From: a virus
Reading direction: 5' to 3' (one strand)
IMG/VR virus record: IMGVR_UViG_3300031885_000010
Span: 2,440 to 66,439 of that record
DNA length: 64,000 nt
Both the position numbers and the translations under genes were made by a program. Below are positions 298-753 of this stretch, piece after piece; position 1 is the first letter of the stretch; each line of letters begins with the position of its first letter. The notes below the pieces were generated by a model. It searched no databases, was not told where the DNA came from, and saw nothing but the letters and a program-made list of their open reading frames with translations.

Positions 298-385
298 AAA
301 TAACGCTCCGGCTCACTTGGCCGGCAAGGAGGAAACATGAAATCTAAAAGAGCTATTCCGGCTCAAGTGCAGTCGGTTGTTAGCG
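298..385 (+). repeat. attC-like site 2 (contains RBS+ATG)
   Basis: AAATAAC-GCTCC-GGCTCACTTG...CAAGTGCAGTC-GGTT-GTTAGCG. Confidence 0.8.
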
Positions 386-531
386 AAAAAGACCTTATTA
401 TTTCATATATAAAAGGACTCCTTGACAATGGATTCTTTCTTGTTTTAACTCCTACTCAGTACAGATTGTGTCCCAAAGAATTAAAGGGGCATCCAAATCT
501 TAAAGTAAATAAACTCTTACCATTACGCTAA
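337..531 (+). CDS. Cassette protein B, hypothetical; starts inside attC 2
   Basis: AAGGAGG 326-332, ATG 337; stop TAA lies in R'' box CGCTAAC. Confidence 0.6.
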   Translation: MKSKRAIPAQVQSVVSEKDLIISYIKGLLDNGFFLVLTPTQYRLCPKELKGHPNLKVNKLLPLR

Positions 532-618
532 CGACTGAACTCAGCGGCGGCGAAAGGAGTTGATATGCTAAACAGAGACGAAGAAGTTGAAAGGATTTTC
601 TTGAGTGATTTGTTAGAC
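526..618 (+). repeat. attC-like site 3 (degenerate arms, contains RBS+ATG)
   Basis: CGCTAAC-GACTG-AACTCAG...TTGAGTGATTT-GTTAGAC. Confidence 0.68.
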
Positions 619-753
619 GGAGGATTTATGTTATTTTACTCTTTTATTTGGCAAGCTCAAACTTCAACAGAAGGTGTCTATATTTTTTATAGAAATAAAT
701 GCGAAGTTATTGGGCACAAAGAAATTTGTTGGGATCTTTGTTACTCCGTCTAA
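565..753 (+). CDS. Cassette protein C, hypothetical (YopX-C-terminus-like 'CEVIG' motif); starts inside attC 3
   Basis: AAGGAG 554-559, ATG 565; stop TAA in R'' box GTCTAAT. Confidence 0.55.
   Translation: MLNRDEEVERIFLSDLLDGGFMLFYSFIWQAQTSTEGVYIFYRNKCEVIGHKEICWDLCYSV

Follow-up and report, generated by a model that had tools for sequence, protein, structure and literature searches.

Can one DNA element serve both as the recombination site of a gene cassette and as the place where translation of the adjoining gene starts? In the usual view an integron cassette is a promoterless gene followed by its attC site, and the attC hairpin hinders translation of the next gene. The question is raised by a row of small phage genes separated by attC-type hairpins, in some of which an earlier note had placed the Shine-Dalgarno sequence (SD) and start codon of the following gene in the hairpin loop. 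The row lies at the beginning of a 64,000-nucleotide stretch of DNA, hereafter the window, which comprises bases 2440-66439 of a 66,439-bp IMG/VR virus record and is nearly the whole of this tailed-phage record.

The phage genome

The two ends of the record overlap by ~121 bases, and its source is sediment metagenomes. The phage encodes a large terminase, a portal-like protein and virion proteins, as well as a PurZ-like enzyme, a tRNA, a group I intron with a LAGLIDADG endonuclease, an HNH endonuclease (2429-2821; Pfam / PHROGs) and a Sak4-like annealing protein (61166-61966). The intron and the tRNA are the only Rfam matches in the window. A search of all frames of the 66-kb record for the Phage_integrase family (PF00589) gave no match at E <= 1 (positive control, 14/14 genomes), and a tyrosine recombinase was likewise not found in two other viral records searched. 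BLASTN of positions 1-4000 against the phage collection gave no match. Relatives reached through the upstream YopX-like and nuclease proteins are at most 40% identical over long stretches, or show no such identity, and the array is common to none of them; with L023 (L numbers designate loci) the DNA in common is a 59-nt match only. The large terminase is without a match in G001 and G002, a weak result as both records are incomplete. Pfam and PHROGs searches with the window cassette proteins, and with 10 of 18 listed proteins fused to the leader described below, returned nothing usable.

Organization of the array

Positions 30-1601 carry six small + strand ORFs, A to F, set apart by attC-type hairpins. 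The repeats between the ORFs start with (A)TAACG and finish with GGTTAT or similar, and four intact and two degenerate attC-type sites, all on the + strand, are packed inside 1.3 kb. The array opens with attC 1 (30-115; type 1), which has AAC at 34-36, GTT at 109-111, and T at position 23 and C at position 16 of the 3' arm; copies of it occur in L060, L068 (three copies), L074 and L107. ORF A (130-294, 54 aa), with an SD, AAAGGAG, directly after attC 1, ends at TAA 292-294 and matches no family in Pfam or PHROGs. Next come attC 2 (298-385; type 2), supported by its fold, the detector described below and family alignments, and ORF B (337-531, 64 aa), residues 1-15 of which are encoded by the attC 2 loop, 3' arm and box and which stops at TAA 529-531 within GCTAACG. 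Site 3 (526-618), a degenerate, long-loop relative of type 5 recognized by alignment with L065, L076 and window site 5, is followed by ORF C (565-753; 62 aa from ATG 565 or 41 aa from ATG 628), which ends at TAA 751-753 within TCTAATG. Site 4 (750-805) combines the 5' half of a type 5 site with the 3' half of a type 1 site, as seen from repeat families D3, D11 and D18 and a BLAST match to L068.

In D, E and F, as the earlier note had it, GGAGG and an ATG follow the 3' box: ORF D (819-1022, 67 aa) has GGAGG at 809-813 and starts at 819, ORF E (1100-1276, 58 aa) has GGAGG at 1085-1089 and starts at 1100, and ORF F (1334-1567, 77 aa) has GGAGG at 1325-1329 and starts at 1334. Between them lie attC 5 (1026-1080; type 5), with AAC 1030-1032 and the 3' box GTTATGC 1074-1080, of which copies are found in L063, L064, L065 and L076, and attC 6 (1271-1324; type 6), with AAC 1275-1277, GTT 1318-1320, T at position 23 and C at position 16, and a copy in L067. 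Like attC 1, both are supported by fold and detector. ORF E stops at a TAA inside the attC 6 5' box and ORF F at the TAA within ATAACC 1564-1569. Since B, C, E and F all stop in the TAA of the next 5' box, these cassettes end with their own stop codon; the rule does not extend to A (TAA 292-294) or D (TAG 1020-1022).

The array closes with a conserved non-hairpin element (1564-1601, +) that begins ATAAC. In four metagenome runs this element shows raised depth and unlike flanks on both sides, and a 26-nt match to it was found in the L057 contig only. If the - strand is taken as the top strand, the element sits in the position expected of an attI. Beyond the array, other hairpins, not of the attC type, precede genes at 1655-1700 and 2885-2925.

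Geometry of the hairpins

The bottom strand of an attC site has a 5-6 nt unpaired spacer after the R box, then a 3-bp L box; the other arm carries extrahelical bases on either side of a 6-bp stem, a conserved T at position 23/24 and, in most sites, G at position 16, and lengths range from 57 to 141 bp (Nivina 2016, PMC5027507). A detector script for this canonical bottom-strand layout was built from that description, with the 3' spacer fixed at 5 nt and G-T pairs accepted on that strand only. It gave 72 hits in the phage genome and 19 array loci versus 0-9 (mean 4.45) in 20 shuffles, a ~16-fold excess. In 405 kb of 80 other phage loci there were 11 hits versus 9-13 in shuffles, i.e. no enrichment. 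T occupies position 23 in 65 of the 72 hits, and nearly every hit has G or C at position 16. Where T is at position 23, the 5' spacer almost always measures 5-6 nt. The sensitivity of the strict detector is low, since it found 2 of ~10 cassettes in four class 1 plasmid arrays; a relaxed version, allowing one stem mismatch or three extrahelical bases, also gives false hits. A fold-based scan for AAC...GTT hairpins chose over-long pairs and was too noisy, and the detector was used instead.

Site 5 reads on the + strand as a textbook bottom strand (ATAAC-GTAGA-AAT-CAGCGG-CG-TTTTGAA-CG-T-CCGCTG-G-AAT-GATTG-GTTATGC) and has the best fold z-scores, -4.4 as DNA and -3.3 as RNA. Sites 1, 2 and 6 fold too and keep the spacing of site 5, but have C at position 16 where site 5 has G. 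All four form an imperfect hairpin bounded by inverted AAC...GTT; site 3 keeps these cores without the stem. The fit of the boxes to RYYYAAC/GTTRRRY is partial in the window (AAATAAC/GTTAGCG, GTATAAC/GTTATGC, GCATAAC/GTTATCT) and full in some relatives (GCCTAAC/GTTAGAC in L070, GTCTAAC in L076). With their boxes, sites 2 and 1 measure 88 and 86 nt, and sites 5 and 6, at 54-55 nt, fall slightly below the 57 limit. A CALIN is a group of two or more attC sites close together without a nearby integrase; in the window the sites are clustered and PF00589 is absent.

Strand polarity

All detector hits in the window array are on the + strand, which is the gene strand. On plasmid R100, in contrast, the detector fires on the aadA1 attC solely on the strand opposite the gene. 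In a class 1 control (R100 and four other plasmids), 8/8 attCs directly downstream of annotated cassette genes were hit on the opposite strand, a sample, taken with the relaxed detector, of few cassette types: aadA1 twice, aadA16, dfrA27, arr-3, aac(6')-Ib-cr and aac(6')-IIc twice. Elsewhere in the class 1 plasmids the relaxed detector gave five + and five - strand hits, apparently spurious. With hits on the gene strand in the window and on the opposite strand in class 1, the cassettes here are reversed, attC lying 5' of its ORF. By this geometry the window ORFs lie on the bottom strand, and the predicted mRNA is one that carries the bottom-strand form.

In the relatives the gene strand was read by a simple SD-plus-ORF rule. 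At 65 sites, SD-supported ORFs are on the same strand at 38, on the opposite (canonical) strand at 5, on both at 4 and on neither at 18. The longest open frame, tried as another guide to the gene strand, was uninformative (37 same versus 26 opposite). Canonical cassettes also occur in these arrays; L064 1-90, for instance, has three extrahelical bases and the box GTTAGGC, and its sense gene lies on the opposite strand. The bottom-strand-like strand is the more stable in 47 of 65 sites, with G-T pairs at 0.68 versus 0.29, but this biased test is given no weight because the detector accepts G-T on that strand only and many of the sites are copies.

attC 2 as a putative recombination site and translation start

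attC 2 folds into a long imperfect hairpin with a 5' arm at 302-324, a 33-nt loop at 325-357 and a 3' arm at 358-381. Its 5' side consists of the box AAATAAC 298-304 (AAC 302-304), a spacer (305-310), the L box GCT 311-313 and the stem CACTTG 314-319, above which 320-324 pairs with 358-362. The 3' side has the extrahelical T363, the stem CAAGTG 364-369, the extrahelical C370, the L box AGT 371-373, the spacer CGGTT 374-378 and the box GTTAGCG 379-385; this box is the actual 3' core, which had been placed at GTTGT 376-380. The spacer can pair in part (CCG/CGG), and the + strand holds a G-U pair, G311-T373.

The SD and ATG pairs reported in the earlier note were borne out by direct reading, in attC 2 (AAGGAGG 326-332, ATG 337-339) as well as in site 3 (AAGGAG 554-559, ATG 565-567). 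The attC 2 signals lie in the loop, and the frame from ATG 337 is read through the 3' arm to the TAA 529-531 in the next box, as had been described. B was said to have no RBS and start of its own, and indeed no other plausible start for it is present; ATG 337 would be the start used. With SD and ATG in the loop and the ORF in frame, one DNA element would be both a recombination site and a translation-initiation region.

This arrangement recurs in a family. The type 2 element, ~83 nt long, has 21 further copies in 19 other loci, making 22 elements in 20 loci with the window. A 17-mer from the 5' arm led to two viral contigs and a 23-mer to 17 metagenome loci, including the same two contigs; L107 was added from the genome collection and L120 through protein homology. 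When the genome collection was scanned with the 5' arm, 36 of the 37 hits lacked the 3' arm, and the element was present only in L107, a contig of 2.2 kb from the bin of a Chloroflexi MAG; thus a bacterial integron with a type 2 attC was not found in that collection. A scan of viral contigs with a type 1 3' motif gave six hits, all unrelated. In L055 and L057 the type 2 element is the sole DNA in common with the phage, small repeats aside.

SD and start are in the loop in 22/22 elements (ATG in 21, GTG in L075), and in all copies the start frame continues across the 3' arm and the box and enters the next ORF. After the GTT, this leader frame has a median open length of 69.5 codons, versus 15 and 7 in the other two frames, and is the longest in 20 of the 22 elements (the exceptions are L065 and L074). 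The fused downstream proteins form 19 groups without mutual BLASTP match at E <= 1e-3, and three pairs among them are related (L062/L066b, L063/L120, L064/L066a). The leader encoded by the 3' arm and 3' box is close to MKSKRAIPAQVQPVV, 15 residues rich in Lys/Arg. In the alignment the 3' arm, which was outside every search pattern, is nearly invariant, third codon positions included; variation is seen in the loop codons (S/A/P, R/K/G, A/I/V), the spacer and position 16 (C/A/G), the flanks of which are fixed. Conservation ends abruptly at GTTA(G/T), and the sequence beyond is unrelated in nearly every pair. Five stem pairs are changed on both sides and all still paired (shuffles: mean 0.2, 0/500 reach five), all five in one sequence, L120; in the other 20 alignment rows the 5' arm could hardly vary, since the searches and the regular expression were keyed on that arm. 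The idea that a recombination-type hairpin doubles as a translation module is thus supported by the family, in which an SD, a start and a 15-codon leader stand in frame on 19 unrelated ORFs.

Site 3, ORF C and site 4

Site 3 had been presented as a second attC with the start codon in its loop, and the claim stands in part. Both ends, the SD and the ATG are present. The 5' half (526-549) has a 23-nt perfect match in a complete type 5 attC of L065, with AAC 530-532, the L box ACT 539-541 and the stem CAGCGG 542-547, and the 3' end matches type 5 in G603, AGT 604-606, GATTT 607-611 and GTTAGAC 612-618. The central 6-bp stem, on the other hand, has decayed (CAGCGG versus TTCTTG gives two Watson-Crick pairs, three G-T and one mismatch), and the fold is not significant (z = 0.04 as DNA, -0.43 as RNA). 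The same long-loop layout with an intact stem, and with an ORF start in the loop, is found in L076 at 1236-1317.

C is not without an RBS of its own, as had been claimed: GGAGG 619-623 and ATG 628-630 follow directly after the box, in the same frame as ATG 565. Judged by these signals, ORF C can start at 565 or at 628. C is an orphan, with no homologue in a 5.8-billion-protein search, and word-based searches with B and with C returned the self-match only. B and C were considered as paralogues, and the resemblance (6/15 identities, E = 0.008 for a single comparison) is too weak. Site 4, besides being a hybrid, has its AAC mutated to AAT (TAATG), lacks positions 8-16 of the 3' arm and folds weakly, and it is probably inactive.

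The leader as an add-on

In two protein families, B's own among them, some members carry the leader and others do not. For the L063 protein (120 residues) the search gave 7,672 hits, and most of the best 120 cover ~86% of it, i.e. lack the leader (the first 15-16 residues). In an alignment of 20 members of this family, picked partly for full coverage, seven have the leader or a variant and the other 13 start M-x(0-8)-P-K-I-[VI]-CLCG. The leader junction is often V-V-M, or GTT-ATG, so that the native start codon abuts the 3' box. A full HMMER search with B found six homologous proteins: P0123, 72% identical, carries an L120-type leader, and P0125, P0127 and P0128 match B from residue 16-17 onward and have other N-termini or none. 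The expectation that homologues would carry differing attC-derived N-termini is thus realized for B, by the variant leader of P0123 and the three proteins without it; C has no homologues to compare.

Cassette limits and crossover

Three comparisons bear on where the cassettes begin and end. L064 and L066 have in common a 246-nt block (98.8%) that runs from the AACG of a type 2 attC to the ATAACG of the next, different attC; attC and downstream ORF are shared, and the upstream flank and ORF and the downstream attC differ. L062 and L066b resemble each other across attC and ORF (320 nt, 75% identity), which means that attC and ORF have diverged together. In metagenome run X3 a contig of depth 27 joins position 750 to 1565 at their common TAA, a variant without D, E and F. 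A cut at AA|C of the 5' box would be consistent with all three, and each attC would then travel with its downstream ORF. The geometry leads to the same place: with the + strand as the canonical bottom strand, the crossover would be expected at AA|C in the 5' box, which makes attC plus the following ORF one cassette, and ordinary shuffling would keep the leader with its ORF. New leader-ORF fusions do exist, and on this model they must come about during the making of cassettes or through less frequent events at the 3' box.

The earlier note had drawn the opposite conclusion, that shuffling would create new fusion proteins or switch cassette translation on and off. On such a model crossover takes place at the 3' box, the leader belongs to the upstream cassette and every shuffle creates a new fusion or silences a cassette. 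The sharp end of type 2 conservation at GTTA(G/T), with unrelated sequence beyond, agrees with such a model, and a canonical attC can recombine on its other strand at lower frequency (PMC5027507). Yet the extrahelical bases are on the + strand 3' arm, which points to preferred cleavage in the 5' AAC, and the model is at odds both with the L064/L066 block, in which attC is shared with the downstream ORF and not with the upstream ORF or the downstream attC, and with the joint divergence of attC and ORF in L062/L066b. Swapping of N-termini or toggling of translation by shuffling, contradicted by the bottom-strand geometry and by breakpoints at AA|C, is therefore very unlikely. Taken as a whole, the observation from which this work started is partly confirmed.

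Model and alternatives

Window 30-1601 is probably a phage-borne CALIN of reversed cassettes. We infer that a recombinase of the IntI type, presumably supplied by the host, acts on these sites; its substrate would be the folded + strand, and its cut would fall at AA|C. Each cassette would consist of one attC and the following ORF, ending at the TAA of the next 5' box. On the mRNA, the hairpin would precede the RBS in types 1, 5 and 6, and would show the RBS in its loop in type 2 and long-loop type 5; translation from the loop start would then melt the 3' arm. Observations that do not sit easily with an attC reading are that no tyrosine recombinase was found in this record or the two other viral records, the boxes fit in part, C replaces G at position 16 in sites 1, 2 and 6, and the ORFs are on the bottom strand.

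The main alternative takes the hairpins for RNA elements of phage early transcripts, which might present the RBS, couple translation or stabilise processed mRNAs, would be no substrate of an integrase, and could have spread between phages by homologous recombination in the manner of T4-type PeSL cassettes. The folded strand is the mRNA strand, each hairpin lies between a stop codon and the next RBS, and G-U pairs such as G311-T373 are on the + strand; the phage has the Sak4-like protein (61166-61966) for annealing and no integrase was found in it, and the hairpins at 1655-1700 and 2885-2925 show that non-attC hairpins precede genes as well. The + strand being also the transcript, strand asymmetry cannot part the RNA from the DNA reading. 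What an RNA role gives no reason for is the exact layout, namely AAC separated by 5-6 nt from a 3-bp L box on one arm and T, 6 bp, N, 8 nt and GTT on the other, which is ~16-fold over shuffles, is not enriched in other phage DNA and is common to otherwise unlike sequence families. Nor does it account for textbook canonical attCs in the same arrays, such as L064 1-90 with its three extrahelical bases, GTTAGGC and canonical-sense gene, or for breakpoints that are sharp at AA|C and not scattered along the repeat. We consider a purely RNA-level function unlikely. Still less can be said for the suggestion that the element is kept for its peptide, for example as an N-terminal targeting or processing signal of small phage proteins (the capsid-targeting sequence of T4 internal proteins is a signal of this sort), with the hairpin incidental. 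A Lys/Arg-rich 15-residue N-terminus common to 19 unrelated proteins would suit it, but half of the stem is upstream of the start codon, synonymous positions of paired codons are fixed while loop codons change the amino acid, the L120/P0123 variant alters the peptide (HQVDAVV) and keeps every pair, and homologues work without the leader; this explanation is extremely improbable.

Relation to known systems

Sedentary chromosomal integrons such as those of Vibrio carry one attC family, the VCRs, on many unrelated cassette genes, with sharp limits at both boxes. Type 2 is likewise a homogeneous attC family on unrelated genes. The VCR attCs, however, are 3' of the gene and on a bacterial chromosome beside intI, whereas here they are 5' of the gene and on separate phage records without other long DNA match. 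The PeSL of T4-type phages is reportedly a strong sigma-70-type promoter followed by a terminator stem-loop, which acts through homologous recombination. In the window array no + strand terminator was found, with no T run after the hairpins, and promoter-like sites are not enriched (14 versus 11.4 expected), so these elements fall outside that definition. PeSLs (PMC2839356) resemble them as short conserved structured repeats that flank small orphan genes in plastic parts of phage genomes and mark where genes are gained and lost, and differ from them in that here the promoter/terminator signal is missing, the layout is that of attC and the breakpoints are at AA|C.

Phage CALINs are known. Qi et al. 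(2023, PMC9892861) count 17 of them and tested six phage attCs, of which five were recombined by IntI1 at G|TT, with higher efficiency on the bottom strand. As in the present phage, these are arrays of attC hairpins between small ORFs in phages without an integrase (PMC9892861). Compared with the CALINs in the accessible sections of that paper, this array has its ORFs on the bottom strand, attC before the gene, and one attC family with SD, start and leader. Translation signals within recombination sites also have precedents, in ORF-11/ORF-18 of attI1 and in short ORFs in class 1 attC, which relieve the hairpin's block on ribosomes (PMC8876359). The likeness to ORF-11/ORF-18 is that a site with a working SD and ATG serves the adjacent cassette, sometimes by in-frame fusion; as far as the accessible sections of the source go, the class 1 signals are in attI or work by termination-reinitiation on top-strand mRNA (PMC8876359). 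Here, by contrast, the start is in the attC loop itself, on a bottom-strand transcript, and supplies a family-wide in-frame leader of the cassette's own ORF. In the part of the literature covered by full-text search, no attC family with SD, start and in-frame leader and no arrays of bottom-strand genes were found.

Implications for phages and integrons

It is possible, though doubtful at present, that environmental phages keep their own pool of reversed integron cassettes in which attC is a 5' expression module, supplying RBS, start and leader, with the stop furnished by the TAA of the next hairpin, and in which new genes join in frame at the 3' box, often as GTT-ATG at the native start. If this is true, the type 2 family shows the junction at which cassettes are made, an unsolved step of integron biology, and cassettes are exchanged between separate phage lineages by a host recombinase or one as yet unknown. 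The polarity of the usual cassette would be reversed, the hairpin having been turned into a translation start. Annotation would be affected too: gene callers and integron finders built to look for a gene ahead of its attC would put the N-termini and the cassette limits of such arrays in the wrong places. The type 2 element would be a compact portable unit, combining an expression signal with a recombination-type site, on 19 unrelated proteins in phage records with little other common DNA. Such arrays may serve as a system for asking how cassettes are assembled, the junction being visible at GTT-ATG, and whether phages that lack an integrase of their own exchange small accessory genes by means of host integrases.

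Boundary of the array and the chimeric site

The cassette array of the phage closes with a conserved, non-hairpin element of 36 nt (window 1564-1601), which makes up the right-hand side of the 750->1565 joint found in the metagenome variant that does not carry ORFs D, E and F. Depth over the element is raised in four metagenome runs, and the flanks are dissimilar on either side. If the - strand is taken as the top strand, the element occupies an attI-like position. Only one contig shares it, that of L057 (a locus with a related attC array), with 26 nt in common. Site 4 (window 750-805) is a chimera in which two attC families are fused within the loop; its 5' box is mutated, with AAT in place of AAC, and the site may be a scar left by a lost cassette.

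Signals downstream of the array

A second repeat, CCCTCCATCGCC(T/C)GAA, is present at window 1655-1712 and 2100-2145, upstream of ORFs G and I. It folds into a hairpin with an SD-like sequence (GGAGGG) as its 3' arm, and AAAGGAGTTGATATGC is common to the starts of ORF C (553-568) and ORF G (1697-1712). Further downstream, a long hairpin followed by TTTTT (window 2337-2412; RNA fold -36 kcal/mol) looks like an intrinsic terminator. Directly after it come a promoter-like site (2412-2439) and an HNH endonuclease gene (2429-2821).

Related arrays in other loci

Another phage with an attC array (L063/L057) carries a ~50-nt direct repeat (400-455 and 1056-1107, L057 reverse strand) immediately 5' of two attC sites. 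The repeat contains a promoter-like TTGAAG ... TATACA, and some cassettes of this phage may have their own promoter. A further array, L107, has a GC-rich attC-like site and, next after it, an ORF whose NPPF motif makes it resemble, by eye, a DNA adenine methyltransferase (1525-2174). Methyltransferases are also reported among the phage cassettes in a paper on attC clusters in phage genomes (Qi 2023, PMC9892861).

Genome ends and other genes

The two ends of the phage record (1-121 and 66319-66439) share an overlap of ~121 bases that differs at one position, so that we probably have the complete genome, with either circular permutation or terminal redundancy. The record is classified as linear and 85% complete. 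On the - strand, a group I intron (window 30456-30691; Rfam RF00028, 69.9 bits) is adjoined by a LAGLIDADG homing endonuclease ORF (29350-30240), the two spanning 29350-30691. Also on the - strand is a gene for a 2,006-aa protein (6856-12876), the C-terminal 560 residues of which match phrog_9854 (unknown function); an endolysin family gives a weak match to residues 528-695. The + strand encodes a 404-aa PurZ-like protein (54409-55623; phrog_1211, '2-aminooxy adenylosuccinate synthetase', E = 4.6e-50). The phage DNA may contain 2-aminoadenine in place of adenine; if so, A-T pairing in the attC hairpins would be stiffer as well.
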